24,000 nt of DNA from Candidatus Scatosoma sp. (GTDB lineage: Bacteria > Bacillota > Clostridia > Christensenellales > Borkfalkiaceae). Both the position numbers and the translations under genes were made by a program. The stretch lies in the NCBI GenBank assembly GCA_048465415.1, contig DBFWLO010000014.1:11514-35513 (forward strand). The letters are read 5' to 3'. Below the pieces are notes generated by a model that was not told the origin of the DNA, did not search any database, and saw only the letters and a program-made list of their open reading frames with translations. Position 1 is the stretch's first letter; every line of letters starts with the position of its first letter. Below, one piece after another: positions 7,866 through 23,420 of this stretch.

Positions 7866-9259
7866 AATGCTTTTCTCCTAAAAATATAAAAAGATTCCAT
7901 ACTATATCCGTATATTACCTGTTTACTGCCGTTATACCTTATATAATAATCCATTTCTTTATATTCGGAATATATTTGTATCATAACAATTTTCATAAAC
8001 TCTTGCATGCCGGTTATAGGAATATACGATATCTCTATGCTATTCCTATTTCCCAATAAATTAGCAACAAATTGGTTGATTTTATTTCGGGAATATTCAT
8101 CGTCTTGAAAAATTGCTTCAAAGCCTGTTTTCACTTCATCCTCCGAAATCTCGGGAATTTCCGTAAAAGTTTCCGATTTCTTCTCCCTATTAAAATTTCT
8201 CGAATGCAGAGATTTATCGTCGATATTTCCGTAAGAATAAATTTCGATTATTTCCTCAAAATCTTCACCGTCACTGACGTTCTGTAAAATTCTTAACGCT
8301 TTATCGATTTGCCCTTCTATGTCCCTTCGATTATTCATTATAAAGTTTAACGTAGCTAATGCCGAACCATGAAATTTACTGTTTTTATAATCTATAATCG
8401 AAACGAATTGATCTACGCTTTCAAAACTTGCAATTACTTCATCAAGTTCTCTTTCAAGTTTTCGTTCTACTTCTTCATACTTTTCATTTGTAAGTTCTTT
8501 TATATTTGCAGTAGCAATATAATTGGACACTACTTTATCGAAATTTTCATATCGGATCCATTTTAACTTCCCTAGTATTTCAGAAGTATATTTACTTGGA
8601 TTATCGCGTCCTTTTAAATTATTAAACACCGTTAAGATAACTTGATCTTGATATTTGTTTAGCAATAAATCTAATACGTCTTGAGGAGTTAAATCTGTTC
8701 TGTTAATCAATTTTTTGATAAAGCGCTTAATTTCAGAATGAAGTCCCTGTAAACTGTTGAAAAGTTCATTGGTATTCTTAACGATCTGTTCTACCAAAGC
8801 TTTTGATTTTTGATAATCAAAATTGCGTAAAGTTTCATATATAACATAAAAATACCCCGTATATTCAAGCGGCTGTTCTCTTTTTGATACAATCATGCGA
8901 AAAGCTTCAAGCAGTAAAATGGCATTATCAGACAAAGTAATGATATATTCCAGTCCTTTCGAGTTCTCCTCCTCCAACCAGCCACATTTTATAAATTGTC
9001 CAATCTTATATGAGGCTTTCTCTCGCGCTGATTTTCCCAACAGACTTACATTGTCCGCATCGTCCAGTTCGTCGAAATCCCGACCTTTCATGTATGCCGC
9101 AATCTTATCTTTAAGATCTTCTTTTACTATGTTTTGAAATCTATCCTCTTTAGTAAATATATCGTAAAGCGTAGAAAGCAAATCGTAATTTGCGCGTTTA
9201 TCCTTACGGGCAAAAACTGAAAACATCCCGTTGTTTATTACATCAAACAGATTCTCCAC
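7862..9259 (-). CDS. jetA: Wadjet JetA: MksF-like kleisin subunit
   Basis: 465 aa and first gene of the operon. GTG start at 9257-9259, with GAGAGG 7 nt upstream. Called from size, order and tight coupling to jetBCD. I recognise no diagnostic motif by eye. Confidence 0.7.
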   Translation of the reverse strand: MENLFDVINNGMFSVFARKDKRANYDLLSTLYDIFTKEDRFQNIVKEDLKDKIAAYMKGRDFDELDDADNVSLLGKSAREKASYKIGQFIKCGWLEEENSKGLEYIITLSDNAILLLEAFRMIVSKREQPLEYTGYFYVIYETLRNFDYQKSKALVEQIVKNTNELFNSLQGLHSEIKRFIKKLINRTDLTPQDVLDLLLNKYQDQVILTVFNNLKGRDNPSKYTSEILGKLKWIRYENFDKVVSNYIATANIKELTNEKYEEVERKLERELDEVIASFESVDQFVSIIDYKNSKFHGSALATLNFIMNNRRDIEGQIDKALRILQNVSDGEDFEEIIEIYSYGNIDDKSLHSRNFNREKKSETFTEIPEISEDEVKTGFEAIFQDDEYSRNKINQFVANLLGNRNSIEISYIPITGMQEFMKIVMIQIYSEYKEMDYYIRYNGSKQVIYGYSMESFYIFRRKAL

Positions 9260-9585
9260 AATTTACCTCTCTTATATTTTACAGTTTTTCTAAAATAATT
9301 TTCTAAAGTTTTTTATGAAGTCCTACTTATTAGCTAAACGTCTATTGGTTTTGTAATATCCCAATTTGATATATAGTTTTCATTTTATTTCCTTTGATTA
9401 TTTTTCATTATACTTATTATAACATACCACTTCTAGGAAATCAATACCTAAACCATATTTTTCTTTGCTTTCTAACGTCTTATTTTAATTTGTTAAACAT
9501 TATAAAAATCTCTTTTAAGGCATCCACTTCTCTCCTTGAAAATCGTTTTACTCCTTTGAAACAGTTTTTCTATAAAGTAAAAAGC

Positions 9586-9609
9586 CGTTCCGAAAAAAAG
9601 TTCGGAACG
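9586..9609 (-). terminator. Perfect 9-bp hairpin followed by a T-rich tract on the minus strand
   Basis: CGTTCCGAA-aaaaag-TTCGGAACG. On the minus strand it is followed by gcTTTTTacTTTat. It lies about 285 nt downstream of the minus-strand ATPase gene and upstream of the jet operon, so it may insulate the two. Confidence 0.4.
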
Positions 9610-9893
9610 ACAGTCGATAATTACAGAGCTTTTTATAATGGGCACAGACCACATACAAAAACAGATCCGCGAGCCGTAGGAAAAAGGAACAAAATTTCTT
9701 TAATACGCAACATTGTAAATAGGTCTTAATTGATACGAACCTTTGAAAGCCTTCTTCCCCTTTTAATTTTCATTGTAAATTTTTTAGTTTTACTGTTCAC
9801 ATAAACCCATATAGAAATCAATGGAAGTCTTTACTCATAAACGCCTATTGATGTCTGAACATTAAAGGTTCGAATTTCAATAGGTGTTTTAGT

Positions 9894-11180
9894 CTAATTT
9901 TTCAGGGCGGTAATGGGGATTACGAAAACACCGTCAGGTCTTACATACGCAGCATTGGACATACCGCATATCACACAAAGGATTGTAGGCGCTATACCAC
10001 CGTCCTTTACAATGTCCTCTCTTAATGCAATAAGCTCAGTTGCCGCTTTTTCTATTTGATTTGCTCCGAGCTTTATTTCAAAAGCACACCAGCTTCCATT
10101 TTCAAGCTCAATAACGGCATCGATTTCTTTATTGTTGTAATCTTGATAATGGAATACGTTCGCGCCGAATGATTCCGCATAAATTTTCAAATCGCGCTCC
10201 ACGAGTGCTTCAAATAAAAACCCGAAGGTTTCAAGGTCGCCGATCAAACGCTCAGGCGTAGCCTTTAACAATGCACACGCAAGTGCGGGATCGCAGAAAT
10301 GCCGCTTTTCAGCCTGCTTTACACGAACGGAAGAACGAATGTTGGCAGAGAAAGGCAACTGATTGTCGATCAGGAACAAGCGGTTGAACACGTCGAGATA
10401 CGTTGTAACGGTGTCGCCGTCAATCGTTTCATCGTCGATTTCTTTAATATCAGAAAGGAGCTTCTTTTTAGTTGCCGTCGTGCTTTCATTTCTCGCAAGA
10501 GAACGTAGCAATAAACGCATTTTGGCAACGTCGTATTTTTTATCGTCAATTCTTTGTGAATCATCGTCAAGAATTGCATCGAGATAAGATCGCGGTAAAA
10601 GAGATGCGTTTTCGATCGGAACATTCAGATTTCCGGGCCACCCTCCGCGCACCACGAAGTTCGCAAGATCACGCAAATTGACCTCAACCGTCAACATGGG
10701 CGTTATATTGCCGTTGCACAGTTCTTTGAGAGAAATGGCACCGCTTGAATCTCCCGACTCGTAAAGTGACATCGTCCGCATACGAAGTTTACCGATTCGA
10801 CCTGCGCCGCTATGCAAAACGCCTTTCCTCTTAGGTGTCGATGAACCCGTGAGAATAAATTGTCCTTTTTTTGCTCTTTGATCCACCGTATAACGCACAG
10901 CATCCCATATTGACGTTACCTCTTGCCACTCGTCAAGAAGTCTTGGCACTTCACCCTCAAGTACAAGTGCCGGCGATATTTCGGCCAAGGCTCTGTTTTG
11001 AAAATTATTTGCGGGATCTCCTATTAAAAATTCGCTGTTGCTATGGTACGAAGAAGTCCAAGTCTTGCCACACCACTTTGGTCCTTCAATACACACAGCA
11101 CCAAAGGTGGCAAGATATTTTTTTACCATATCGTCAACGATTCTCGGTTTATATTGAGATTTATCCGCTATTTTTTTCAT
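9894..11180 (-). CDS. AAA+ ATPase with a DUF4143-type C-terminal region (AAA_14/DUF4143, COG1373-like), copy 1
   Basis: Walker A EGPKWCGKTW, Walker B RLLDEWQ, ILTGSS sensor and GAGRIG. C-terminal FEALVERDL...EIDAVIELENGSWCAFEIKLG gives a D...ExK restriction-endonuclease-like motif. The start is set at the ATG at 11180 (MKKIADKS), which has an AGGAG RBS. The upstream ATG at 11222 overlaps the predicted -10 box. Confidence 0.85.
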   Translation of the reverse strand: MKKIADKSQYKPRIVDDMVKKYLATFGAVCIEGPKWCGKTWTSSYHSNSEFLIGDPANNFQNRALAEISPALVLEGEVPRLLDEWQEVTSIWDAVRYTVDQRAKKGQFILTGSSTPKRKGVLHSGAGRIGKLRMRTMSLYESGDSSGAISLKELCNGNITPMLTVEVNLRDLANFVVRGGWPGNLNVPIENASLLPRSYLDAILDDDSQRIDDKKYDVAKMRLLLRSLARNESTTATKKKLLSDIKEIDDETIDGDTVTTYLDVFNRLFLIDNQLPFSANIRSSVRVKQAEKRHFCDPALACALLKATPERLIGDLETFGFLFEALVERDLKIYAESFGANVFHYQDYNNKEIDAVIELENGSWCAFEIKLGANQIEKAATELIALREDIVKDGGIAPTILCVICGMSNAAYVRPDGVFVIPITALKN

Positions 11181-11210
11181 AACCGATCTCCTATTGTTAT
11201 TTACATCATT

Positions 11211-11239
11211 ATTATACCACATTACTTTTGATTTTACAA
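11211..11239 (-). promoter_or_regulatory. Sigma70-type promoter for ATPase copy 1
   Basis: The minus strand reads TTGTAA (11239-11234), a 17-nt spacer, then TGG-TATAAT (11216-11211), an extended -10. It is about 30 nt upstream of the ATG at 11180. Confidence 0.55.
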
Positions 11240-11240
11240 C

Positions 11241-11309
11241 TCTATTCGGTCTAATTTTGAAATTTTATTCGGTAAAATTTATTATTTTCTTTCGGCGTAA
11301 TTTTTTATT
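11241..11309. repeat. Three tandem 23-bp iterons with core TTCGG-N3-AATTT
   Basis: TTCGG occurs at 11245, 11268 and 11291, an exact 23-bp phasing. The units are tctaTTCGGtctAATTTTgaaat, tttaTTCGGtaaAATTTattatt and ttctTTCGGcgtAATTTTttatt. The array begins 6 nt upstream of the -35 box of the minus-strand promoter. Confidence 0.6.
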
Positions 11310-11424
11310 ATTCGTGCATCAATCTTATTTCCATCAAGCCTTCTTTCAAAACGCAAAAACGGTTACGCAGTAGACAAAGAAAAGCGATTTTCAAAAAAAT
11401 TTCTCTTTAAACAACGAAAAAATC

Positions 11425-11461
11425 TTCGGCCAATTTATTAAAATTTCATAAATTGGCCGAA
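11425..11461. promoter_or_regulatory. Perfect 14-bp inverted repeat carrying the same TTCGG..AATTT motif; candidate operator
   Basis: TTCGGCCAATTTAT-taaaatttc-ATAAATTGGCCGAA. It ends 7 nt upstream of the -35 box at 11469. On the minus strand it is followed by gaTTTTTT, so it could also act as a terminator or insulator. Confidence 0.5.
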
Positions 11462-11468
11462 TAAAGTC

Positions 11469-11497
11469 TTGACAAACGGATAAAATCAGAGTATAAT
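11469..11497 (+). promoter_or_regulatory. Consensus sigma70 promoter for the ATPase copy 2 / hsdMSR operon
   Basis: TTGACA (11469-11474), a 17-nt spacer, then TATAAT (11492-11497). Both hexamers are perfect. It is about 43 nt upstream of the ATG at 11540. Confidence 0.65.
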
Positions 11498-11539
11498 ACT
11501 TTTAGTATTAAAATGCCATAGGTATACATGGAGGAATTT

Positions 11540-12769
11540 ATGAATTATATCTACCGCCATATGGAAAATAGAATTTTAGAGCTGTCACAGTCGTATTCCG
11601 CCATACTTTTGACTGGTCCGCGCCAAGCAGGTAAGACGACCATGCTCCGTTCCCTTGCAGAAAAGGAAAACAAGGGGCGTGAGTATGTGTCTCTTGACGA
11701 CCTTGTTACGCGCGATATGGCAAAGAACGATCCTGCGCTATTTTTACAAATGCATAAGCCCCCTGTATTAATCGACGAGGTTCAGTATGCGCCAGAGTTG
11801 TTTACGTATATTAAAATGCATATTGACGAAAATCATAATCCTGGCGATTTCTGGATGACAGGTTCGCAAATCTTTCGCTTGATGAAAGGCGTACAGGAAT
11901 CGCTTGCAGGACGCGTAGCGCTTTTGCATATGTCGCCTATGTCGCAGCGTGAGATTATCGGTGCGGAATGCATTCCATTCTCAACGAAGATGGAAACGCT
12001 TCTTGACGAAAGCAAAAAGATTGCGCCCGTGGATACGCCTACGCTATTTGAACGCATCTGGCGTGGTTCGATGCCTGGTATCGTATCAGGACTTTATCGC
12101 GACCGCAATATGTACTACTCGTCCTATATCTCTACGTATGTGGAACGCGACGTACGTGATATTTCGGGAACGGTAGACGCGCTTAAATTCAATCGCTTTA
12201 TTACGGCGGTCGCGGCGAGAACTTCGCAACTACTCAATTATAAAGCAATCGCAGACGATGCCGATATCGATATGGCTACGGCAAAAGCGTGGATAGCTAT
12301 TCTCGAAACGCTCGGCATCATCTTCCTTCTGCACCCGTATTCAAATAACGTGCTTAAACGCACGATTAAAACGCCGAAAGTTTATTTTTATGATACAGGA
12401 CTTGTGTGCTATCTCACGAAATGGTCAAGTCCCGAAGTTGCAGAAAGCGGCGCAATGAGCGGCGCACTTCTTGAAAATTTCACGATATCTGAAATTATGA
12501 AGGGATATCAAAACGCAGGGCTTGAACCGTATCTGTACTTTTACCGTGATAAAGACGCCAAAGAAATCGACGTTATCATGGAAGGAAACGGCAAACTCTG
12601 TCCTTTGGAAATTAAGAAAACCGCAACGCCCGACAAGCGCATCATCCGCACTTTTGGTGTGATTGACCGCGCACCATTGCAGGTTGGAACAGGCGCTGTT
12701 TTGTGTATGGCGGAACAGTTCGGCGCATTCGATAGGGATAACCTCATCATACCGATTTGGATGATATAA
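11540..12769 (+). CDS. AAA+ ATPase with a DUF4143-type C-terminal region (AAA_14/DUF4143, COG1373-like), copy 2; restriction-linked
   Basis: Walker A TGPRQAGKTT, Walker B VLIDEVQ, WMTGSQ and LAGRVALL. C-terminal LLENFTISEI...EIDVIMEGNGKLCPLEIKKT gives a D...ExK motif. The ATG at 11540 has a GGAGG RBS 5 nt upstream. The stop is only 12 nt before the hsdM ATG. Confidence 0.85.
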   Translation: MNYIYRHMENRILELSQSYSAILLTGPRQAGKTTMLRSLAEKENKGREYVSLDDLVTRDMAKNDPALFLQMHKPPVLIDEVQYAPELFTYIKMHIDENHNPGDFWMTGSQIFRLMKGVQESLAGRVALLHMSPMSQREIIGAECIPFSTKMETLLDESKKIAPVDTPTLFERIWRGSMPGIVSGLYRDRNMYYSSYISTYVERDVRDISGTVDALKFNRFITAVAARTSQLLNYKAIADDADIDMATAKAWIAILETLGIIFLLHPYSNNVLKRTIKTPKVYFYDTGLVCYLTKWSSPEVAESGAMSGALLENFTISEIMKGYQNAGLEPYLYFYRDKDAKEIDVIMEGNGKLCPLEIKKTATPDKRIIRTFGVIDRAPLQVGTGAVLCMAEQFGAFDRDNLIIPIWMI

Positions 12770-12781
12770 TGGAGAAGAAAA

Positions 12782-14386
12782 ATGGCTAAAAAGACTACTG
12801 AAGAAAAAATAAACTTGGATTCTATACTGTTTAAGTGCCGCGATATATTGCGTAAAGCAAGAAATTCGGGGTCGTTCTTTGAAAAACGCGATATGATGTT
12901 GACGCTCGTATTTTTGCGTTTCATTGGTGAAAAATTTGAAGACGGGCTTAAAAAACTCCGTCAAGACCTTATCGAACAAGGACTTGACCCCGATGATGAA
13001 GATATTATTGCCGCATTCTTCGACGACGCAACCTTCACGGACGGCACGTACAACCTGCCCTTAGAGGCCCGTTGGTCTACCATCATCAATACCCCTGCGC
13101 CGAAACTCAACGTCGCACTCGATACCGCACTTCATAGCATTGCCGCAAGTAGTACGCAGTTGAAGGGCTGTTTTGTGGAAGGCACGTTCACTGCGCGCAA
13201 CCTTGCCCCCAACGACATCAAACAAGTCGTGGACGAAGTAAACAAAATCAGCCATAAAGTGTTTGGTAAAGAAAAAGATTTAATCGGTCGCGTATATGAA
13301 TATTTCTTGAAAGAGTTCGCCGTAAACGCAACCAAAGAAGAAGGCGAATTCTACACTCCGCATGACGCAGTTCAGCTTATTGCTACAATCATAGAACCGT
13401 TTGACGGCACATTGTATGACCCTTGTTGCGGTTCGGGAGGTATGTTTGTTCAAAGTACCGATCTTATTAGAGAAAAACACGGCGACATTAGCCGTATCAA
13501 CGTTTACGGACAAGAAAAAGAAGCAGCAACCTATCGCCTGGCAAAAATGAACCTTGCGCTTCGCGGCATCAGCCATAACCTTGGCGAAACGAGCGATTCT
13601 ACCTTTACGCACGATTTGCATAAAGGTTTATACTTTAACTACATTATGGCAAACCCGCCCTTTAACCTTAAAGGCTGGTACGACGATAATTTGAAAAACG
13701 ATTCCCGTTGGGCGGACTATACCACGCCTCCTGAAAGTAACGCAAATTATGCATGGATTTTGCATATGCTTTCGCATTTAAAACCCCTTGACGGCGTTGC
13801 TGGTTTCTTGCTCGCTAACGGTGCATTAGGTGATAGTGATACACTGGAAATTCGTAAAAAGCTGATACAAAATAATAAAGTCGAAGCCATCATTATCCTT
13901 CCGCGAGAACTTTTTATTACCACGGATATCAGCGTTACCCTTTGGATTTTGAACCAAAATAAAAAAGGCGGCACATATCACGGAAGAAAACTTCGTAACC
14001 GTGAACACGAAATTTTGTTTATGGACTTACGTACTTGGACGGAAAATCACGTTTCGGGCGAAAACAAAAAGAAAGTGCGTTTAGACGATACGCAAATTCA
14101 ACGTGCTGCCGATATATACCACACTTGGCAAAGCGAAGGAACCGATGGCAAGAATTATGCCGTACCCGAACTTTACCGCAGCGTAAGTATGGACGAAATT
14201 GATAAAAAAGGCTGGACGCTTGTACCCAGCAAGTATATCGAGTTTATCGACCACGATTTGGATATTGACTTCCCTATGGAAATGGCGCGTATTCAAAGCG
14301 AAATGAAAGAAATCATCAAACAAGAAAAACAATCGCAAAAAATGTTGGAAGATGCTTTTAGGGGTATTGGCTATGGCATTGACTAA
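12782..14386 (+). CDS. hsdM: Type I restriction-modification system, N6-adenine DNA methyltransferase subunit M
   Basis: 534 aa. HsdM N-terminal region, AdoMet motif LYDPCCGSGGMF and catalytic motif IMANPPFN. GGAGA RBS. Followed by hsdS and hsdR. Confidence 0.95.
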   Translation: MAKKTTEEKINLDSILFKCRDILRKARNSGSFFEKRDMMLTLVFLRFIGEKFEDGLKKLRQDLIEQGLDPDDEDIIAAFFDDATFTDGTYNLPLEARWSTIINTPAPKLNVALDTALHSIAASSTQLKGCFVEGTFTARNLAPNDIKQVVDEVNKISHKVFGKEKDLIGRVYEYFLKEFAVNATKEEGEFYTPHDAVQLIATIIEPFDGTLYDPCCGSGGMFVQSTDLIREKHGDISRINVYGQEKEAATYRLAKMNLALRGISHNLGETSDSTFTHDLHKGLYFNYIMANPPFNLKGWYDDNLKNDSRWADYTTPPESNANYAWILHMLSHLKPLDGVAGFLLANGALGDSDTLEIRKKLIQNNKVEAIIILPRELFITTDISVTLWILNQNKKGGTYHGRKLRNREHEILFMDLRTWTENHVSGENKKKVRLDDTQIQRAADIYHTWQSEGTDGKNYAVPELYRSVSMDEIDKKGWTLVPSKYIEFIDHDLDIDFPMEMARIQSEMKEIIKQEKQSQKMLEDAFRGIGYGID

Positions 14387-15497
14387 ATACAAATTAGGCG
14401 ATTTAATAGAGTCTTGCGACGTACGAAATTACGAAGACGCTTATACTCTTGACGATGTTAGGGGGATTTCAACGAACAAGGAATTTATTGAAACAAAAGC
14501 AGATATGGACGGGGTAAGTTTGTCCTCCTATAAAGTGGTCGATAAAGGTGAATTTTCTTATGTTTCAGATACTTCAAGACGAGGCGAAAAAATAGCTCTC
14601 ACTTTCAACAAAAGCGAACAGGCATACTTGATATCGTCCATATATACAGTTTTTCGGGTGACGAGAAAAGAGTTGATACATCCCGACTATCTGTTTATGT
14701 ATTTCAATCGTCCAGAGTTTGATCGATATGCTCGCTTTAATTCTTGGGGCTCAGCAAGAGAAGTATTCAGTTGGGAGGACTTGTGCGATATAAATATCGA
14801 ACTTCCCGACTTGCCTACGCAACAAAAATACGTGGATATTTACAAAGCAATGGTGGCAAATCAGCAAAGCTACGAGCGCGGCTTGGAAGACTTGAAACTC
14901 GTTTGCGACGGCTATATTGAAGACCTGCGTCGTAAAATGCCTTGTGAAAAAATCGGTCAATATCTCATTGAAAGCGACCAAAAAAACGATATCGGACTTA
15001 TTCTTGAAGCCGTCAGAGGATTATCTACGAATAAAGCGATGATACCAACCAAAGCCGATATGAACGGAGTTGGGCTTGATGGATATAAGGTAGTAAATCC
15101 CCGACAAATCGCTTATGTTCCCGATACTTCAAGACGAGGCGAAAAGGTTTCGCTTGGTTTTAACAATACAACGGAGCAGTTTTTAGTGTCTTCTATCTAT
15201 ACTGTTTTTGGAACAAACCCCGAGGTCTTGATTCCCGAATACTTGATGTTATTCTTCACGAGAGCAGAGTTCGATCGCTATGCACGCTTCAACTCGTGGG
15301 GTTCGGCACGCGAAACGTTTGAATGGAGCGAAATGCGTAATGTTCAAATACCTATTCCCGACATTCCAATACAGCAAGCAATAGTCGATGTTTACAACGC
15401 GTATATTACACGTAAAGAAATAAACGAGCGATTGAAAGCACAAATCAAGGATATTTGCCCCATCTTAATCAAAGGCTCATTAGAAGAAGGAAAATAA
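14373..15497 (+). CDS. hsdS: Type I restriction-modification system, specificity subunit S
   Basis: Two target-recognition-domain halves, each followed by a conserved helical region (..FDRYARFNSWGSARE..). The ATG at 14373 (MALTKYKLGDL) overlaps the hsdM stop by 14 nt. The ATG at 14352 is an alternative start. Confidence 0.9.
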   Translation: MALTKYKLGDLIESCDVRNYEDAYTLDDVRGISTNKEFIETKADMDGVSLSSYKVVDKGEFSYVSDTSRRGEKIALTFNKSEQAYLISSIYTVFRVTRKELIHPDYLFMYFNRPEFDRYARFNSWGSAREVFSWEDLCDINIELPDLPTQQKYVDIYKAMVANQQSYERGLEDLKLVCDGYIEDLRRKMPCEKIGQYLIESDQKNDIGLILEAVRGLSTNKAMIPTKADMNGVGLDGYKVVNPRQIAYVPDTSRRGEKVSLGFNNTTEQFLVSSIYTVFGTNPEVLIPEYLMLFFTRAEFDRYARFNSWGSARETFEWSEMRNVQIPIPDIPIQQAIVDVYNAYITRKEINERLKAQIKDICPILIKGSLEEGK

Positions 15498-15555
15498 ATT
15501 ATGACAGATTACGAAAAATTAAAGAGTAGTATCATCAATACATAGGAGAAACACT

Positions 15556-18500
15556 ATGGCAAAATTACACAATTTTAACGGGCGTTATTGCGAATCTGAA
15601 TACGAAAACGCTTTCCTTTCCTTTTTAGAACAAGAAGGCTGGGCATATCTTGCAGGAAACAACATTCCGCGCACAACAAAACGCGATGCGATTTATACTG
15701 ACGATTTGGAACAGTTTTTAAGCAAAACGAACGTCGATTTAACCGTAGACGAAATACGGCAGATTATAGACACCGTCCGCCTTGTGGGTTCGGAAAGCGA
15801 GTTTTCCACCTTACATAAGGTTTACGGTTGGATGGTCAACGGCATTCAATTTACGTCGCAATCGGGGCTTGCTAAAATGGTTGCTCTGATTGATTTTGAA
15901 AATTTCGAAAATAATATTTTCCGTGCGGTCAACCAATTCACTGTGGAATATACACACAATGGACTAGTTGAAACGCGCCGTCCTGATATAATTTTGTTTG
16001 TCAACGGCATGCCTTTATGTCTAATCGAGTTGAAAAATCCGGCAGATGCAAACGCAACTATTTACACCGCTTGGGAGCAAATTTACAATCGCTATTGGCG
16101 CGACATTCCACACCTTTTACATTTCAGTCCTTTGGCGTGCATTTCCGACGGTGTTAAAACGCGTCTTGGAACGGTTCGTACGCCTTATGAACATTTCTAT
16201 GCTTGGCGTCGTATCAATGACGGAGATAAAGTTTCTACTCTTCCTTTTGAAGAAACGCAAGCTATGATTAAGGGTGTTTACAGCCCTGAAAGATTCCTGG
16301 AAATCTTCCGTGACTACATATATTTCCAAGACAGCGAATATGACAGTGATGAACGCGAAATCGTTTGCCGTTATCCGCAGTTTTTTGCCGCACGTTTATT
16401 GAAAAACAGTATTATAAAATCTGTTATAGAAAAAAGCGGTAAAGGCGGTACGTATTTTGGTGCAACAGGTTGCGGTAAAACGTACGCTATGGCGTTCCTT
16501 GCCCGTCAACTTGCTTTGCGTTGTACGGACGTGCCTGAAATCGGTTCTCCCACTATTGTTTTAATCGTTGATCGTGACGATTTGCAAAAACAAGGCGCAA
16601 AACTATTTACCAAAAGTAAAGAATTCTTAAATCTTGGCGAAGTTAAAATTGTTCCTACACGTAAAGTATTGCGTGAAGAACTCGGCGCACGTGAAAGCGG
16701 CGGTTTTTATATCTGTACTATTCAAAAATTCTGTGACCGTGAAGATGATAAAATCGGTCTTATTAACGACCGTGCGAATATTATTTGCTTCTCTGACGAA
16801 GCGCATAGAACGCAGCTTGAGCATGCAAAGAAAATTAAGTTCAGCAAGGATACTGATGAGAATATGAGAGCTATGATTTCTAAACCGTATGCGAAAGTAT
16901 TAAAAGAAGCTCTTCCCAAGGCTACGTTCGTTGGGTTTACCGGTACGCCTATTTCTGAAACGTATCAGACTTTCGGTGATGAAATTGACCGTTACACAAT
17001 GGACCAAGCGGTTGCCGACGGACTTACGGTTTCTATCAAATATCATCCCCGTATCACAAAAGTATTGCTTGACCAAGAAAAAGTCAAACAAATTGAAGCG
17101 TATTACAAGAAATGTGCCGATGATGGTGCAACTGAAGGAGATATTGAAGCAAGCAAAAAGGCTATGAGTTCAATGGAAGTAATCCTTGGCGAGCCTTCAC
17201 GTTTAGAACGTCTTGCGGTGGATATTCACAACCACTACGTTTCGTCTTGCGCAAACACCCCTACAAGAGTACAAAAAGCAATGATTGTTTGTTCCAGCAG
17301 AACGATTGCTTACCAACTCTTGAAGGAATTCGAAAAGAAGTATCACGAATGGTTTGAAGAAAAGAAAACGCCCGACGGTATGGACGCAACCGATGAAGAA
17401 TTGCGTGAATTGAAACCTATGCCATGCATCGCCATGGTTGCAAGCGTCGGCAGTAATGACGATTCTGAAATGTATAACTATTTAGGCGGTGTTAAAAATA
17501 GCAAGCGTTCAGATGATATGGCTGCGGCGTTCAAGCAAGATAAATCAAACTTCCGTATTGTTATCGTCGTCGATATGTGGATAACGGGTTTTGACGTACC
17601 TTCGCTGACATATATGTACAATGATAAACCTCTTAAAAAACACATGCTTATACAAACAATTAGCCGTGTTAATAGAAAATTTGAAGGAAAAGACTATGGC
17701 TTAATCGTGGACTATATCGGTATTCGTGATAATATGCGTGAAGCGATAAAAATCTACGGGGGTGATGTGTCTGTTGCTCCTTCTTCTGACGATGTGGAAC
17801 AGGCTACCGCTATTTTTAGAGAAGAACTTGAAATCCTTAAAGACCTTTTCAACGGCTATGATTTAGCTCCGTTCCTTGACCCAAGCGGTGATCCTACTTT
17901 AAGATATACGCTGTTAGCAAAAGCAGCCGAATACGTGTTTATTTCCACACAGGAACTGCAAACACAAACTGACGGCGGTAAAGGCGTTAAAAAGGTATCC
18001 TTTAAGACTTACTTTTTGAAAACCGTTAAACGTATGCGCACGGCTTACGACATTTGCCAACCTTCCGGAGAACTTGGTGAAGAAGAATCCGCACTCGCAC
18101 AATGCTTTATGGCTATAGCTGGTTTTGTTCGCAAGATGAGCGGTACTAGCGATGTGGATACGGAAACTATGAATCGCCATGTAGCTCAAATGGTTGAAGA
18201 AGCCCTGAAATACAATAAAGTTGAAAGCATTCTTGAAGACGGCGAGCAAGAAGATATTTTCAGTCCCGAATACTTTGAAAGATTGATTGACGTTAAGATG
18301 CCTGCCTCCAAGTTAGAATTGCTCATAAAAATGCTTCGTAAGCAAATCAAGGAATACGGTAAAACCAACCAAATGGCGGCGAAAAAGTTCCAAGAAATGC
18401 TTGAAGAAACGATTAAGTTATACCACGAAAGAAGAAAAACGCTCTCTGCCGAAGAATCAGATGAAGCACAAGAATATACGTCGGAAGAGATTATTCGTAG

Positions 18501-18885
18501 CGCAACCGAACAGGCTCTCCGCATCTTAAAGGATATGAACGCCGACCGCGAAAGTTTCCGTAAGATAGGCTTGACCTTTGAGGAAAAGGCGTTCTACGAT
18601 ATTTTGATGGCTTTACGTGACCAGTACAACTTTGAATATGGCGAAAATAAGGTCGTTGACGGCGTAGTGCTTAACGATAGATGCAAGGCGTTGGCAAAGA
18701 AAATCAAGGAAATCATAGATACGAAATCTTCGTTTGCCGACTGGCTTAACAATCAAATCGTGCGCGATCAGTTGAAATTTGATATCAAGGTATGCTTGAT
18801 TAAAAACGGATATCCCCCACAATATAGCCCCGAAGTTTTCCGTAAAATCATAGAACAAGTTGAAAACTTCGAGGAGAATAATTAG
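15556..18885 (+). CDS. hsdR: Type I restriction enzyme, R subunit (helicase/endonuclease)
   Basis: 1109 aa. An N-terminal nuclease region with a PD-(D/E)xK-like segment (RPDIILFVNGMPLCLIELKN). Helicase motif I FGATGCGKTY and motif II (DEAH-type) CFSDEAHRTQ. Long C-terminal helical domain. Confidence 0.95.
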   Translation: MAKLHNFNGRYCESEYENAFLSFLEQEGWAYLAGNNIPRTTKRDAIYTDDLEQFLSKTNVDLTVDEIRQIIDTVRLVGSESEFSTLHKVYGWMVNGIQFTSQSGLAKMVALIDFENFENNIFRAVNQFTVEYTHNGLVETRRPDIILFVNGMPLCLIELKNPADANATIYTAWEQIYNRYWRDIPHLLHFSPLACISDGVKTRLGTVRTPYEHFYAWRRINDGDKVSTLPFEETQAMIKGVYSPERFLEIFRDYIYFQDSEYDSDEREIVCRYPQFFAARLLKNSIIKSVIEKSGKGGTYFGATGCGKTYAMAFLARQLALRCTDVPEIGSPTIVLIVDRDDLQKQGAKLFTKSKEFLNLGEVKIVPTRKVLREELGARESGGFYICTIQKFCDREDDKIGLINDRANIICFSDEAHRTQLEHAKKIKFSKDTDENMRAMISKPYAKVLKEALPKATFVGFTGTPISETYQTFGDEIDRYTMDQAVADGLTVSIKYHPRITKVLLDQEKVKQIEAYYKKCADDGATEGDIEASKKAMSSMEVILGEPSRLERLAVDIHNHYVSSCANTPTRVQKAMIVCSSRTIAYQLLKEFEKKYHEWFEEKKTPDGMDATDEELRELKPMPCIAMVASVGSNDDSEMYNYLGGVKNSKRSDDMAAAFKQDKSNFRIVIVVDMWITGFDVPSLTYMYNDKPLKKHMLIQTISRVNRKFEGKDYGLIVDYIGIRDNMREAIKIYGGDVSVAPSSDDVEQATAIFREELEILKDLFNGYDLAPFLDPSGDPTLRYTLLAKAAEYVFISTQELQTQTDGGKGVKKVSFKTYFLKTVKRMRTAYDICQPSGELGEEESALAQCFMAIAGFVRKMSGTSDVDTETMNRHVAQMVEEALKYNKVESILEDGEQEDIFSPEYFERLIDVKMPASKLELLIKMLRKQIKEYGKTNQMAAKKFQEMLEETIKLYHERRKTLSAEESDEAQEYTSEEIIRSATEQALRILKDMNADRESFRKIGLTFEEKAFYDILMALRDQYNFEYGENKVVDGVVLNDRCKALAKKIKEIIDTKSSFADWLNNQIVRDQLKFDIKVCLIKNGYPPQYSPEVFRKIIEQVENFEENN

Positions 18886-18952
18886 TCTAACTCCAATAAA
18901 AGTATGTTAAAATTTCTTTATACAAACGATTAAAGAGTTAACTTATGATTTC

Positions 18953-19828
18953 ATGAAGATAATTAGAGAGAGCAACTCAATGATTGATAGAAGAATAAAA
19001 AACGCAGAAATATTCCGTGACACGGAGCAATGCTACACAACCAACCAAGTATTGCGGCAAGGGGTTGAAACATCAATAGAAACTCAGATTTTTATTCCAG
19101 AAAAATCTACTGTATGCTTACATGCCCTTTGTAAAACAGAAAAAGCGAGAGTCATTGTAAGCGGAAAGCGTTCGCTCGAAGCGGCTGAAAACTAAGTCAA
19201 ACAAGGTAAACAGGTGTGCGTGTTGAACTTTGCTTCTGCCACAAATCCTGATGGGGGCGTTGTTAGCGGTTCCTCCGCGCAAGAAGAATGTATTTGCAGA
19301 TGCACTACTTTATATCCTTGCCTAAGCACTAAAATGATGTGGGATGTATTTTACGCACCGCATTGTCAAACGGCAAGTCCATTATATAATGACGATTGCA
19401 TCTATACGCCAAACATTTGCGTGTTCAAGAGCGATACAAATTTCCCTGAACCGCTTCTTCAAGAAAAATGGTGGAGCGTGAATATTCTCACTTGTGCTGC
19501 CCCTAATCTACGCGAACGTCCCAACAATAGAATGAATCCGCATGCAGGTGATACGGCAACAAGGATTACCCATGAAGAACTTGAAGAATTACTAACGACA
19601 CGGATTCGTCGAATATTTGAAATTGCGGCTGCAAACAAAAACGAAATTTTGATTCTTGGTGCATTTGGATGCGGTGCTTTTAGAAATCCCCCTGAAATCA
19701 CGGCAAAGGTGTTCAATAACGTGATGAAGGATTACTTGTGCTATTTCGATACAATCGAATATGCAGTTTATCATACTGAACGTGAATTGGCAAACTATGA
19801 AGCATTCCAGAAAATAATTGAAAGCTAA
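18953..19828 (+). pseudogene. PARG-like macrodomain protein (TIGR02452/DUF2263 type) interrupted by an in-frame TAA at 19193-19195
   Basis: ORFs 18953..19195 and 19214..19828 are in the same frame with no other stop between them, reading ..SLEAAEN*VKQGKQVCVLNFASATNPDGGVVSGSSAQEECICRCTTLYP... The NFASA..GGG-x7-QEE motif is the bacterial PARG/macrodomain signature as I recall it. Here the first Gly is Asp (DGG). The true start may be the ATG at 18980 (MIDRRIK). Confidence 0.7.
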
Positions 19829-19830
19829 GT

Positions 19831-19880
19831 AGAGCCCGGTGATCGGTCAAGGTCGCCGCGCTCTATTTTTATTTTTTATT
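19831..19880 (+). terminator. Rho-independent terminator after the macrodomain gene
   Basis: The hairpin AGAGCCCGGTGATC-ggtcaa-GGTCGCCGCGCTCT (19831-19864) has a 14-position stem with one mismatch and two G-U pairs. It is followed by aTTTTTaTTTTTTaTT. Confidence 0.6.
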
Positions 19881-19952
19881 CTTTTGACAAACAAAGACAC
19901 ATGAAACTATATAGTATTTTCATAAACGCATTAATACATTCCTAAAAACGAC

Positions 19953-19981
19953 TTGACAAATAATTCCAAATATGTTAAACT
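19953..19981 (+). promoter_or_regulatory. Sigma70-like promoter facing the element genes
   Basis: TTGACA (19953-19958), a 17-nt spacer, then TAAACT (19976-19981). A second TTGACA at 19884-19889 has TATATA about 18 nt downstream. Confidence 0.35.
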
Positions 19982-20225
19982 ATATATGTTGATACAAATT
20001 CATAGGCGCACATTTATTAAAACAATTAAGCTCGTATAAACCTTTGTGCACACAACTGAATACACATAATATTTTTTAAGAATTTTTAGACTTGTACATA
20101 GTAAACGGATTGCTTTCAGCCGTTTTTTGTGCAGGTCTTTTTTGTTTGCCCTTAATAAATATCAGGAGGTAAAAATACGAAACAAAAATGAACAGAAGAA
20201 AAACAACAAGGAGGGTGTTACAAGG

Positions 20226-20650: not shown

Positions 20651-20872
20651 ATGAAACAGTCGATGTATAAGAGCCGTGAGGAGATGCCTATGTTCCTCAC
20701 CGTGATGGACGTAGCAAATCTGCTTGGGATTTCCCGAGCGAGCGCCTACGAGCTTGTGCGCGAGGAGAACTTTCCGAAGCTGAAAATCGTTCAGGGCAGA
20801 ACCATCATACCGCGCGACAGACTTCTCGAATGGCTCGATGAACAGACGAAATACGACCATACAGCAAAATAG
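20651..20872 (+). CDS. Excisionase-family / MerR-like helix-turn-helix DNA-binding protein
   Basis: ..PMFLTVMDVANLLGISRASAYELVREENFPKLKIVQGRTIIPRDRLLEWL.. is the typical HTH_17/Xis-type pattern. An alternative start at 20690 has a GAGGAG RBS. Confidence 0.75.
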   Translation: MKQSMYKSREEMPMFLTVMDVANLLGISRASAYELVREENFPKLKIVQGRTIIPRDRLLEWLDEQTKYDHTAK

Positions 20873-20895
20873 GGTTTTGCGAAACCCTATTTTTT
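20869..20895 (+). terminator. Rho-independent terminator
   Basis: ATAGGGTTT-tgcg-AAACCCTAT is a perfect 9-bp stem with a 4-nt loop, followed by TTTTT. It overlaps the TAG stop at 20870-20872. Confidence 0.7.
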
Positions 20896-21152
20896 AAGCA
20901 GGATAAAGCCGTGTCTGCCCCACACGGCATACCACATCGCACGGCAACGCCGAGCGAGACGAAACCGGGGCGTGATAAGGCTTTTTGAAGACCTCTCCCC
21001 TGCCAAATCACAAAGACATATCGTGTCTGCGGGGGGACAAAATCGACACTTTATAGTCTTACAGTACCAAAATATCAAGGCGTTACAAGGGATTGCAGAT
21101 ATCTGATCATGGCGCCTTCCGAAGTTTTACAATCATCAAAAGGAGAAAAACG
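20896..21152 (+). other. Candidate oriT / relaxosome assembly region
   Basis: About 250 bp of non-coding sequence immediately upstream of the RHH and relaxase genes. It contains the inverted repeat GCCGTGT-ctgcccc-ACACGGC (20908-20928). The 9-mer CGTGTCTGC occurs at 20910-20918 and 21022-21030. A G6 tract starts at 21031. Confidence 0.3.
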
Positions 21153-21554: not shown

Positions 21555-21564
21555 GGAGGCATGA

Positions 21565-23304: not shown

Positions 23305-23420
23305 CGGAGATGAAAAAATAATGATAATAAACCGATAATTCCTCGCAAAAACGCTGGATATTCTCTCGAACCTGTGGTATATTTGTGGTACGACAAAAAT
23401 CACAAAAACAGGAGGAACTG

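Follow-up and report, generated by a model that had tools for sequence, protein, structure and literature searches.

A portable ATPase-nuclease gene as probable leader of a composite Type I restriction-modification operon in Candidatus Scatosoma sp.

The ATPase-nuclease gene that precedes a Type I restriction-modification (R-M) system in Candidatus Scatosoma sp. is a portable leader gene, neither a subunit of the Type I R-M system nor a dedicated helper of it, because the clade to which it belongs heads many unrelated defense cassettes and also occurs alone. The locus lies in a stretch of 24,000 nucleotides (the window), and it is interpreted here, with moderate confidence, as a composite operon in which a mobile, self-contained leader module has been fused to a promoterless R-M cassette. 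The first module would be a horizontally mobile single-gene unit of ~1.36 kb in which an inverted-repeat operator and a consensus sigma-70 promoter precede the ATPase-nuclease ORF; the encoded protein is predicted to combine an AAA+ ATPase, a winged-helix segment, and a PD-(D/E)XK nuclease domain. The second, a Type I hsdM-hsdS-hsdR cassette that would lack a promoter of its own, begins 12 nt past the ATPase stop codon, and its R-M genes would be transcribed from the ATPase promoter. The leader module would in this way lend a strong promoter to any cassette docked behind it.

Gene organization of the R-M locus

The first cistron is the ATPase-nuclease ORF, located on the + strand. It ends at position 12769 and has two possible starts, 11528 and 11540, of which the ATG at 11540 (ORF 11540-12769) is the likelier, because a GGAGGA sequence stands at 11530-11535 and the homologs open with MNYI or MSYI. 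The stop codon TAA (12767-12769) is followed by a 12-nt spacer (tGGAGAAGaaaa, 12770-12781), which holds the ribosome-binding site of hsdM alone (GGAGAAG, 12771-12777), and then by the ATG of hsdM at 12782. The identical 12-nt gap recurs in independent metagenome contigs (L183 and L187).

The methyltransferase gene hsdM (12782-14386, + strand) matches HsdM_N and N6_Mtase in Pfam and MTase_I in PADLOC (1.3e-101). The specificity gene hsdS (14373-15497, + strand), which matches Methylase_S in two stretches and Specificity_I in PADLOC (3.2e-141), overlaps hsdM by 14 nt from the ATG at 14373 used in the gene call, or by 35 nt from 14352. The gene for the restriction/translocase subunit, hsdR (15556-18885, + strand), starts 58 nt after the hsdS stop and presents HSDR_N, SWI2_SNF2/ResIII, T1R_D3-like, and T1RH-like_C domains, as well as a PADLOC match to REase_I (6.7e-243). 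The Type I R-M set is complete, with hsdM, hsdS (two target-recognition domains), and hsdR intact, contiguous, and on one strand, and the spacing of the four genes is the same as that given in a preliminary description of this DNA.

The same description had proposed a single ATPase-hsdM-hsdS-hsdR transcript, and the terminator scan agrees with this proposal. No + strand terminator-like site was detected between the promoter and position 15135, and the sole one between the promoter and 19837 is a weak site within hsdS. The four genes are therefore predicted, from sequence, to form one transcription unit driven by the ATPase promoter. The probable tail of this unit (18980-19858, + strand) comprises a 71-aa ORF (18980-19195, gene call) and a TIGR02452/PARG-like macrodomain gene (19220-19828), and it closes with a terminator-like hairpin, the first one past hsdR (19837-19858, terminator scan). 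The macrodomain gene has a PARG_cat_microb match and a TIGR02452 match (1.6e-45) that covers profile positions 82-266 only, and both it and the small ORF probably share the transcript initiated at the ATPase promoter. Two weak promoter-like sites (9/12) are found within the ATPase ORF, at 12366-12394 and 12471-12498, so hsdM could also have a start of its own.

The ATPase-nuclease protein

The protein encoded by the first cistron has 409 aa. The Pfam and PADLOC searches suggested in the preliminary description were run, yielding matches to AAA_14 (PF13173; residues 20-139, 1.4e-29), to DUF4143 (PF13635; residues 202-360, 2.9e-47), and, over its full length, to the PADLOC model PDLC04790 of the candidate system PDC-S01 (E=1.5e-108, with residues 1-408 aligned to positions 8-416 of the 422 in the profile). 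As six more PDC-S01 models also match, the protein is a clear member of this family.

The Walker A (G26-P-R-Q-A-G31-K32-T33) and Walker B (I78-D79-E80) motifs noticed at the outset are invariant in 74/74 intact members of the clade, and also across three paralog clades. The same applies, in the 74/74 intact members, to the C-terminal nuclease motif formed by D344 (EIDVIME) and E357-I-K359 (PLEIKK), residues that an AlphaFold2 (AF2) model (pLDDT 76.4, pTM 0.81) places on predicted strands 343-347 and 353-358. DUF4143 has been included in a survey of the PD-(D/E)XK superfamily. The model consists of an AAA+ core, a lid, a helix-helix-helix-strand-strand segment (residues 214-283, pLDDT 78-93), and a putative C-terminal alpha-beta-beta-beta-alpha-beta unit. 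Assignment of the middle segment to the winged-helix fold is weak, because it is based on this predicted secondary structure and on a weak profile match to the MarR-type regulator SlyA (E=0.055).

Foldseek returned matches with probability 1.0 to Apaf-1, FtsH, ORC/Cdc6, RuvB, and a clamp loader, with low whole-chain TM-scores (0.2-0.36), and also matches to STAND ATPases; no solved structure of the family was found. Neither the Pfam nor the PADLOC profiles of McrB and McrC match the protein. An ATP-dependent, DNA-binding nuclease activity resembling that of the McrBC-type enzymes is predicted for it.

Promoter and repeats of the ATPase gene

The ATPase gene is preceded on the + strand by a perfect sigma-70-type promoter, TTGACA-17-TATAAT (11469-11497), as had been pointed out; it matches the consensus at 12/12 positions and is the sole such match within 10000-20000. 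Promoter-like sites as a whole are not in excess over shuffled sequences (29 found vs 22.7+/-4.1); this one is more than a chance occurrence, because it is kept, together with its flanking repeats, upstream of the orthologs in about 70 other species.

An operator-like inverted repeat, IR1 (TTCGGCCAATTTATTAAA / TTTCATAAATTGGCCGAA, 11425-11461), stands 7 nt upstream of the -35 hexamer. Its arms, of 18 nt, are 94% complementary, and its half-site is unique within the window. Homology between loci extends from the left arm of IR1 to the ATPase stop codon, so that IR1 bounds the conserved mobile unit on its left; in many orthologous loci, terminator hairpins are found directly before it. TTCGGC / GCCGAA half-sites occupy fixed positions (-118, -87, -58, and -25) in 72 orthologous promoters. 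The subclade of the window carries, in place of the second TTCGGC/GCCGAA pair, a palindrome read from the sequence as TAATACT-TTT-AGTATTA (11494-11510), which overlaps the -10 hexamer; in one ortholog (L008), the equivalent palindrome has both arms altered (TATACTACT-AAT-AGTAGTATA). Other paralog clades show this same layout, built from different repeats.

The ATPase gene has the traits of a leader or regulator, being the first gene of its unit and having conserved repeats and palindromes in its own promoter. Putatively, this promoter is repressed by the ATPase itself. Such self-repression is probable because each paralog clade has its own repeat motif at a near-consensus promoter, and because the ATPase is the sole gene that travels with those repeats.

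Orthologous ATPase loci and their cassettes

The survey comprised 80 orthologous loci from 80 species, including Oxalobacter and Synergistaceae, with 59-96% identity. Conservation among them begins at the inverted repeat, some 125 nt upstream, and ends with the ATPase stop codon, while all else varies. A DNA methyltransferase gene is found within 5 kb downstream of the ATPase in 19/56 loci (18 of them on the same strand) and upstream in 2/57 (Fisher p=2e-5, a value that overstates independence, since the 80 loci are not phylogenetically independent and several have a cassette in common, with about ten distinct cassette types among them). Likewise, a same-strand gene lies within 60 nt downstream in 17/74 loci, but upstream in 1/66. 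The association between the ATPase and R-M systems is statistically real and strongly polar. The leader role is facultative, since the downstream gene is on the opposite strand in 27/74 loci, about a third.

What had been advanced as a component or accessory of Type I R-M systems does not behave as such. The co-occurrence with R-M genes stands, and has a direction, but it is not specific to Type I. The R-M cassettes found downstream belong to Type I, Type II (with C5 or EcoRI-like methyltransferases), Type III-like, and Type IV (GmrSD) systems, and the others comprise PDC-S14 and the non-R-M genes SoFic, PDC-S06, PRTase, MNT/HEPN, and truncated JetA. Many orthologous loci have no defense gene downstream, and members of the clade are also found solitary among housekeeping genes, for instance, rhamnosidases. 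The genes upstream of the ATPase are either housekeeping or mobile-element genes, and a third paralog clade has been found as a lone insert.

Cassette swapping is observed directly in two loci, L203 and L202. Both carry an identical ATPase protein (P0114) at one shared chromosomal site, and their DNA is 98-99% identical as far as the stop codon. Behind it, L203 carries a DrmD-like/Type III R-M cassette and L202 a truncated jetA. The high conservation of the gene among species would let it serve as a homology arm through which cassettes are exchanged, with homology stopping at the stop codon. A site-specific cassette platform, such as an integron-like arrangement or an att site at the ATPase 3' end, was rejected: no recombinase consistently adjoins the ATPase in the 80 loci, and its 3' end was not found repeated elsewhere in the window.

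Genes upstream of hsdM and the case for an R-M partner

Looking from the side of the R-M system, 59 close relatives of the hsdM in the window were compared. The preliminary description asked how often DUF4143 genes stand upstream of hsdM; in these relatives, a distant paralog does so in 10/59 and the ATPase clade of the window in 0/59, and any DUF4143 gene is missing from this place in 49/59. This absence, together with the existence of relatives outside Type I loci, speaks against the ATPase being an integral subunit or a dedicated accessory of Type I R-M systems. Taking all fusions of an AAA-ATPase to a PD-(D/E)XK domain, the upstream position is occupied in 12/59 (10 DUF4143 and 2 AAA-ATPase_like+PDDEXK_9), so a genuine functional synergy with Type I R-M may exist. 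The slot before hsdM is equally often held by AbiEii (13/59), a small HTH_3 protein, or GmrSD. In 8 of the 10 DUF4143-bearing loci, just a 3' stub of 22-37 codons is kept from a gene of the ATPase2 clade (that of the R-M ATPase in the window), so the R-M system can outlast the loss of this clade. The replacement of one paralog by another in these eight loci suggests that the position has been re-filled.

According to some of these data, the ATPase-nuclease could be a genuine partner of R-M systems generally, selected for co-expression with methyltransferase-containing systems of any type, in which it might act, as put forward in the preliminary description, as a back-up nuclease, an anti-restriction sensor, or a controller of restriction alleviation. 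The directional enrichment of R-M genes, the tight coupling of Type I, II, and III-like cassettes (6-60-nt gaps), the 10/59 and 2/59 fusions just mentioned, and the re-filled positions all point in this direction, as do the first detection of PDC-S01 inside Type I RM, BREX, and DISARM loci and the fact that one stand-alone representative was not among the candidates protecting E. coli. Nevertheless, such a general partnership is considered improbable, given that the clade also precedes Fic/SoFic, PDC-S06, PRTase, MNT/HEPN, and truncated JetA genes and adjoins housekeeping genes, that paralog clades occur in prophages or as lone opposite-strand inserts, and that 49/59 hsdM relatives do without an upstream DUF4143 gene, with 8 of the other 10 keeping a mere stub of the ATPase2 clade.

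Neighboring modules in the window

A second PDC-S01 paralog, ATPase1 (9894-11180, - strand; Pfam, PADLOC), is encoded divergently from the R-M unit and is 25% identical to its ATPase; its length, 428 aa, is taken from homologs. It precedes jetABCD on the same strand, 634 nt away, and jetABCD likewise comes about 630 nt behind a 98% identical copy in 6/6 contexts. ATPase1 heads the Wadjet system of the window. Its promoter-like site, TTGTAA-17-TATAAT (11239-11211, within a - strand region at 11211-11305 that includes the repeats), is preceded by three direct AAWTTnnnCCGAA repeats (+ strand TTCGGnnTAATTT at 11245, 11268, and 11291), a layout also present in phage-borne copies. The Type I Wadjet operon itself, jetA-jetB-jetC-jetD (2778-9259, - strand), was assigned by Pfam (JetA, DUF4194, SMC-like, and JetD_C) and PADLOC (JetA-D); it has a low GC content (31-36% in the GC profile) and is context, outside the R-M unit. 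The window forms the cargo region of an integrative mobilizable element, whose excisionase, MobP3 relaxase, and integrase are encoded to the right.

This crowded setting, with three or four defense modules side by side, is compatible with the alternative that the adjacency of ATPase and R-M genes has no functional meaning, the ATPase being an independent single-gene defense system or selfish gene placed in a recombination hot spot of a defense island, and the tight spacing a result of genome compaction on a mobile element. The swapping seen at the site shared by L202 and L203, the tight position of AbiEii and GmrSD upstream of hsdM in the same R-M family, and the presence of COG1373 genes among those most often common to different gut genera fit this explanation as well. 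It is judged unlikely all the same, because clustering in an island should be symmetric, whereas defense genes are far more common downstream and on the same strand, the ATPase is almost never the second or a later gene of a unit (1/66), and at least 17 loci leave the downstream gene no space for a promoter of its own.

Very improbable is the proposal that the ATPase is mobile-element machinery, either an ORC/Cdc6-like initiator or a recombination or capture factor that binds iteron-like repeats by its own gene and could promote replication, mobilization, or cassette capture: the AAA+-lid-winged-helix architecture, the Foldseek matches to ORC/Cdc6, RuvB, and STAND proteins, the iteron-like repeats (six 23-nt tandem copies adjoining the ATPase gene in L047, and the three direct ones of ATPase1), the very high conservation across phyla, and a paralog clade adjoining a prophage replication module are compatible with it, but no conserved backbone, integrase, or transposase travels with the gene in the surveyed loci, its 3' end shows no att-like duplication, no PHROG family matches it and no close relatives appear in the viral contig collection, and the invariant PD-(D/E)XK residues are foreign to initiators.

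Comparison with known systems

The preliminary description regarded the family as unassigned in the context of R-M. No function has indeed been demonstrated for it, but it is already a PADLOC candidate, PDC-S01, whose definition drew on genes lying inside Type I RM, BREX, and DISARM loci; it is very abundant and horizontally spread, and is regarded as a candidate consisting of one stand-alone gene (Payne et al., bioRxiv 10.1101/2024.01.29.577857). Among the candidates that protected E. coli B against T4, T5, or T7, one PDC-S01 representative did not figure. The protein of the window resembles PDC-S01 in its full-length match, in having AAA_14 and DUF4143, that is, an ATPase fused to a PD-(D/E)XK domain, and in its single-gene occurrence, with opposite-strand or housekeeping genes downstream in many orthologous loci. 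Contrary to the original definition, in which the genes are embedded between those of a system, the clade of the window is generally the first cistron, with its own operator-flanked promoter and a cassette behind.

Several accessory and regulatory proteins of R-M loci offer partial parallels. PrrC, an ABC-type ATPase-anticodon nuclease, is encoded between hsd genes and is under the control of the R-M complex. PrrC, RloC, and others located within Type I R-M loci are, like the ATPase, accessory defense genes physically tied to hsd genes, but the gene of the window is outside and upstream of hsd, belongs to another family, and has relatives not restricted to Type I loci. WYL regulators of the BrxR/CapW type and the C (controller) proteins of Type II R-M systems are encoded directly upstream of variable defense or R-M operons and have palindromic operators in their own promoters. 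They are small DNA-binding proteins without enzymatic domains, similar to the ATPase in gene position and operators but with no sequence or domain kinship to it. In McrBC-type (Type IV) and related enzymes, an AAA+ NTPase is paired with a PD-(D/E)XK nuclease, which makes them a plausible biochemical analog for NTP-dependent recognition and cleavage of DNA by the ATPase. Unlike them, the protein of the window is a single polypeptide with a putative winged-helix segment between the two parts and an ORC/STAND/RuvB-like AAA+ domain.

As a precedent for a regulated leader gene at the head of a Type I R-M operon, the RMS-proximal repressor RptR comes closest. Its gene opens a Type I R-M defense island, whose promoter RptR represses through repeats that it binds there, and the gene is conserved, along with its site, beside Type I RMS (PMC12255303). 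While RptR is a small dimeric transcription factor linked to Type I R-M, the leader protein of the window is 409 aa long, keeps its ATPase and nuclease motifs intact, would bind its own promoter, and is linked to many types of defense.

Organization of the ATPase-hsdMSR locus

The most plausible reading of the locus is a composite operon, in which a mobile and self-contained module of the PADLOC candidate family PDC-S01 (Payne et al., bioRxiv 10.1101/2024.01.29.577857) provides the promoter for a Type I restriction-modification (R-M) cassette that has none of its own and has been fused behind it. The first gene, which holds AAA_14 and DUF4143 domains (hereafter the ATPase, or ATPase2), matches the PADLOC profile PDLC04790 (PDC-S01) over its full length (E=1.5e-108), and the Type I system that follows is complete by Pfam and PADLOC, which agrees with the domain assignments of the preliminary description. 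The open reading frame starts at 11528 or 11540 and ends at 12769 (+ strand); the ATG at 11540 has a GGAGGA sequence five bases 5' of it, and homologs begin with MNYI or MSYI. It is preceded by a TTGACA-17-TATAAT promoter (11469-11497, + strand), which had been described as perfect and is the sole 12/12 match in 10 kb, promoter-like sites in general being no more frequent than in shuffled sequences. The TAA stop codon (12767-12769, + strand) is followed by tGGAGAAGaaaa and then by the ATG of hsdM (12782-14386, + strand, by Pfam and PADLOC), which is overlapped by hsdS (14373-15497, + strand, in the collection's gene call), and hsdR (15556-18885, + strand) starts 58 nt after hsdS. The 12-nt gap, the overlap and the 58-nt spacing, from which a single transcript had been predicted, are all present in the window.

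A terminator scan from the promoter to hsdR revealed no terminator-like site on the + strand except a weak one inside hsdS, in agreement with that prediction. The range proposed for the transcript may nevertheless be too short, since the first terminator-like site after hsdR is found at 19837-19858 (+ strand), beyond a 71-aa ORF (18980-19195, + strand) and a PARG-like macrodomain gene (19220-19828, + strand), both of which may therefore share the hsdMSR transcript. The macrodomain gene matches TIGR02452 (1.6e-45) at profile positions 82-266 only, and the 71-aa ORF might be its detached N-terminus, that is, part of a frameshifted gene. GC composition was uninformative as a sign of separate origin, as the ATPase gene and hsdM are both ~45% GC.

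The 58-nt spacer between hsdS and hsdR (15498-15555) holds a 14-codon mini-ORF that runs from an ATG at 15502 to a TAG (MTDYEKLKSSIINT). At this position, many relatives of the R-M system carry 1-2.5 kb of embedded genes, so the spacer may be a scar.

Predicted structure and conserved residues of the ATPase

A first AlphaFold2 model, built from 27 sequences of two clades of PDC-S01/DUF4143 paralogs, reached a pLDDT of 47.7, and a fold search with it was uninformative. After the addition of a third paralog clade, the pLDDT rose to 76.4, with a pTM of 0.81. In this model, an AAA+ core with its lid precedes a helix-helix-helix-strand-strand segment (residues 214-283), and the C-terminal unit is alpha-beta-beta-beta-alpha-beta. 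The segment 214-283 looks winged-helix-like in the model, with which a match to the SlyA profile (E=0.055) weakly agrees. In Foldseek, the ATPase part retrieved STAND proteins (Apaf-1, NLRs and Avs4), ORC/Cdc6, RuvB, FtsH and clamp loaders, with low whole-chain TM-scores.

The Walker A and B motifs and the C-terminal D...ExK motif recognized in the preliminary description are present and invariant in all 74 intact orthologs, each from a different species. The invariant residues comprise K32 (Walker A), D79 and E80 (Walker B), T107-G-S109 and G124-R125, as well as E312, D337, D344 and E357-x-K359, and most of them are shared by three paralog clades at 19-25% identity. Because the catalytic motifs are maintained both among orthologs and across clades, the two predicted activities, ATPase and nuclease, appear to be under selection.

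Promoter and operator-like repeats

The consensus promoter hexamers are conserved in 72 orthologous upstream regions, together with two types of half-sites, TTCGGC at about -118 and -58 relative to the ATG and GCCGAA at about -87 and -25. These form two inverted pairs with ~30 bp between the members of a pair, one located before the -35 hexamer and the other bracketing the -10 hexamer and the start site; from such a spacing, a large oligomer would be expected to bind. In the window, the first pair corresponds to IR1 (11425-11461), a near-perfect 37-bp palindrome that is unique in the window and represents an operator candidate, while the second pair is substituted in the window's subclade by a palindrome over the -10 hexamer (11494-11510). 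At one comparison locus (L008), both arms of this latter palindrome have changed together.

The other paralog clades exhibit the same promoter layout with different repeat sequences, as illustrated by TTCGGCAGATTT in one clade versus TTGAGAAGTT in another. ATPase1, a second PDC-S01 gene in the window, and its phage-borne relatives hold three direct AAWTTnnnCCGAA repeats before the -35 hexamer; a PDLC04787-type paralog shows an inverted pair of TTGAGAAGTT before the -35 and a third copy after the -10; and another paralog has three TTTTATTCCTTTTT repeats. Six tandem 23-nt repeats (AAATACCRCAAAAGTCTCCAWYR) with an iteron-like appearance lie directly 5' of the TTGACA-17-TATAAT promoter of a further DUF4143 paralog in locus L047 (~15310-15500, - strand).

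The TTCGGC/GCCGAA repeats are presumably not a known host operator such as the LexA Cheo box, whose motif is not known to match them. The sole gene that travels with the repeats, even into Proteobacteria, is the ATPase itself, so self-regulation through its winged-helix-like segment would be the most economical explanation, and the PDC-S01 module as a whole is probably self-regulated.

A 1.36-kb mobile unit at the head of variable cassettes

A protein search with the ATPase returned thousands of matches, the best 120 clusters of which are all 86-90% identical to it. A scan of one genome per species yielded 80 loci at 59-96% identity, mostly from uncultured gut Clostridia and additionally from one Oxalobacter (80%) and one member of the Synergistaceae (76%). 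Homology between these loci begins at the left arm of the inverted repeat, ~125 nt before the ATG, and ends at the stop codon, which defines a unit of 1.36 kb with non-conserved flanks. Clustering of all flanking ORFs revealed no shared backbone gene, the most recurrent neighbour being an N6-adenine methyltransferase (14 loci, in 12 of them downstream).

Each of three DUF4143 clades with 19-25% mutual identity has its own swarm of close relatives; among the best-scoring 120 clusters of each clade search, identities to the query fall mostly between 83 and 90%, reaching 100% in two of the searches, a tight conservation that is unusual for genes spread over many genera. A phage origin was considered for the ATPase2 clade and rejected, as no relative was found in a scan of viral contigs and no PHROG family matches it, even though one paralog clade is phage-borne.

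Where the gene right behind the ATPase is on the same strand, often 6-60 nt away, its identity is highly variable. The downstream types include at least four HsdM types unrelated to one another; a GIY-YIG/DUF4357 protein (PDC-S14) with a ResIII helicase and an M-S fusion behind it; a C5 methyltransferase accompanied by PDC-M33A; methyltransferases of the EcoRI type and of the N6 type (676 aa); and Fic/SoFic, GmrSD, AAA_13-S24 (PDC-S06), PRTase and ResIII proteins. On metagenome contigs, the genes behind an 88% identical copy are those of a DrmD-like helicase and of a Type III methyltransferase and nuclease, with a TIR (PDC-S66) or SH3 gene embedded among them; behind another copy stand DUF6076, MNT/HEPN, Dam and DndB genes, in an island where CBASS and a second PDC-S01 gene are also present. 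In the cassettes of the DrmD-like/Type III kind (L093-L102, L203-L209), whose helicase is of the SNF2 type, the gene between helicase and methyltransferase alternates by sample (e.g., L094 11978-12847 versus L093 11960-12808), being either a TIR protein (PDC-S66, ThsB-like) or an SH3-like protein accompanied by a 93-aa ORF.

This association is directional. The first two genes downstream (62 loci) encode mainly ResIII, N6_Mtase, DNA_methylase, HsdM_N, DUF4357, Methylase_S and Fic domains, whereas the first two upstream (60 loci) encode oxidoreductases, ABC transporters, HTH proteins and recombinases, and the numbers of PADLOC families matched were 306 downstream versus 65 upstream. A DNA methyltransferase occurs within 5 kb downstream at 19/56 loci (18 on the same strand) versus 2/57 upstream (Fisher p=2e-5, for loci that are not independent because several share a cassette; they comprise ~10 distinct cassette types, at least five of them within a single subclade of at least 93% identity). 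The nearest same-strand gene lies within 60 nt at 17/74 loci downstream and 1/66 upstream, and at many loci a terminator hairpin stands directly before the inverted repeat, which indicates that the ATPase is nearly always the first gene of its unit. The genes behind it frequently have no room for a promoter of their own.

The reciprocal view from hsdM

The reciprocal survey covered 80 metagenome loci with an HsdM at 82-90% identity, 59 of which have enough upstream sequence. None of these 59 holds an intact member of the ATPase2 clade upstream. A tblastn search with the two window ATPases gave 0/59, being blind to distant DUF4143 paralogs, versus 10/59 with a Pfam scan of the upstream ORFs. 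By Pfam, the nearest upstream ORFs are AbiEii (13), AAA_14+DUF4143 (10), a 75-aa HTH_3 protein (10, with a 4-nt gap), GmrSD_N (3) and AAA-ATPase_like+PDDEXK_9 (2), a tally from which this R-M family is usually docked behind some other gene. The DUF4143 ATPase is one recurrent upstream option (~17%), neither required nor exclusive.

At eight of the 59 loci (L111-L114, L117-L119 and L123; e.g., L114 3338-4822 and 4873-4938), the ATPase2-clade gene is reduced to its final 22-37 codons, ~60 nt before hsdM, and in all eight a distant DUF4143 paralog of 449-494 aa precedes the stub. One PDC-S01 gene thus appears to have been replaced by another through recombination near the 3' end. Among the other arrangements, the AbiEii genes are of the nucleotidyltransferase type, tightly coupled and on the same strand; a 298-aa ORF lies 30 nt before hsdM in L121, L124, L126-L128, L130, L132, L134, L136 and L137; and a 75-aa ORF with a 4-nt gap is found in L148, L150, L152, L153, L158, L161, L163 and L176. 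The 75-aa HTH_3 protein is a possible controller protein for the Type I system.

This distribution does not support the idea, put forward in the preliminary description, that the ATPase is a dedicated R-M accessory, given that the intact clade is missing from all 59 hsdM relatives and that its cassettes are of many other kinds. The co-occurrence that had been expected holds in one direction only, as the methyltransferase excess behind the ATPase, and a looser functional synergy of the ATPase with methyltransferase-containing systems is still conceivable.

Cassette exchange at the stop codon

Two samples share the ATPase protein P0114, identical in both and encoded at the same chromosomal site, with DNA 98-99% identical from the upstream genes through the ATPase stop codon. 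Past this codon there is zero similarity, a DrmD-like/Type III cassette being present in one sample and a truncated jetA in the other. A site-specific insertion into the gene's 3' end was rejected as an explanation, because neither this end nor the promoter is duplicated within the window, and an integron-like mechanism is not supported. As the flanking genes of the loci likewise include no consistently adjacent recombinase, the simplest reading is that cassettes are swapped by homologous recombination, with the conserved ATPase gene as one arm.

Neighbourhood and mobile element

ATPase1 (9894-11180, - strand) is divergent from ATPase2 and 25% identical to it, and lies upstream of a type I Wadjet operon (2778-9259, - strand; jetA 7862-9259, jetB 7215-7865, jetC 4013-7237, jetD 2778-4016), from which it is separated by 634 nt (9260-9893). 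The GC content of this operon is 31-36%, versus 45-49% in its flanks. The ATPase1-jetABCD order is maintained in 6/6 contexts of a 98% identical copy, and in two of those six the ATPase2-hsdM junction consists of the same 12 nt, with Fic genes between the divergent promoters. L183 (3048-5783) and L187, contigs that are otherwise 95-98% identical, carry a 2.7-kb insertion of Fic-domain genes and fragments at a point corresponding to window positions 11364-11396, between the two divergent PDC-S01 promoters.

An 86% identical clade of ATPase1 is found in a prophage, between replication genes and HNH/terminase. In the prophage or phage loci L083-L092 and L189-L194, the paralog stands between a DNA polymerase A/D5 primase/SNF2 module and HNH-terminase, followed by genes for an S-adenosylmethionine synthetase, a ParB-methyltransferase, a PAPS reductase and a 729-aa C5 methyltransferase, in what may be a region for anti-restriction or DNA modification.

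Right of hsdR, the window holds an HTH_17/AlpA-like excisionase (within 20651-24000), a MobP3 relaxase apparently split into two ORFs (21565-22224 and 22318-23304, which cover profile positions 44-218 and 268-315, respectively) and, from about 23727 on, a tyrosine integrase. These genes suggest that the defence island travels as cargo of an integrative mobilizable element, and the relaxase may be a pseudogene.

A possible role for PDC-S01 ATPases

A more far-reaching proposal, which we regard as rather unlikely, is that PDC-S01 ATPases are not effectors, but portable, self-repressed, ATP-driven DNA-sensing gatekeepers. Each ATPase would sit on its own clade-specific operator and hold the promoterless cassette behind it at a set level, and the cassette would be released or boosted once foreign or damaged DNA attracts the ATPase-nuclease. 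The conserved gene would double as a homology arm for cassette swapping between species. Such a role could account for the directional association, the breakpoints exactly at the stop codon, the repeats specific to each clade and the absence of one stand-alone representative from the candidates that protected Escherichia coli. If the ATPase does control or assist its cassette, many defence islands would need to be viewed as regulated operons, and surveys that count PDC-S01 as a system of its own would mislead. If neither holds, the locus still illustrates how a conserved mobile gene can both donate a promoter and anchor recombination when R-M systems are exchanged among gut Clostridia.

Comparison with the known PDC-S01 family

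PDB sequence searches, run with the protein itself, with a shallow profile and with a profile of 83 sequences, gave P-loop matches only, NCBIfam returned no named family for the ATPase, and a literature search on AAA_14 in defence yielded unrelated papers only. No description was found of the clade-level pattern, which comprises the nearly constant first position, an operator-bearing promoter with clade-specific repeats, the directional link to ~10 cassette types and swap breakpoints at the stop codon.

The preliminary description had held that no R-M-linked function is assigned to this family; a function is indeed undemonstrated, but the family itself is already catalogued, and the locus adds a member to it. 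PDC-S01 has been described as an unvalidated ATPase fused to a PD-(D/E)XK domain, and DUF4143 was included, with function unknown, in a survey of that nuclease superfamily. The family, with 18,772 representatives at 50% identity in a large protein library, is reported to rank fourth in frequency among prokaryotic defence entries, is the commonest single locus in a rumen survey, and is among the most frequently annotated candidates in bacterial, archaeal, rumen and wastewater surveys. Common as it is, it has neither a demonstrated function nor a solved structure retrievable by sequence or profile, and one study that expressed a representative in E. coli B did not count it among the candidates protective against T4, T5 or T7. 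The present locus and its relatives offer a unit of 1.36 kb, a consensus promoter next to a 37-bp operator candidate, invariant ATPase and nuclease residues and a directional link to ~10 kinds of cassette, and the clade-level pattern makes the function of PDC-S01 directly testable.
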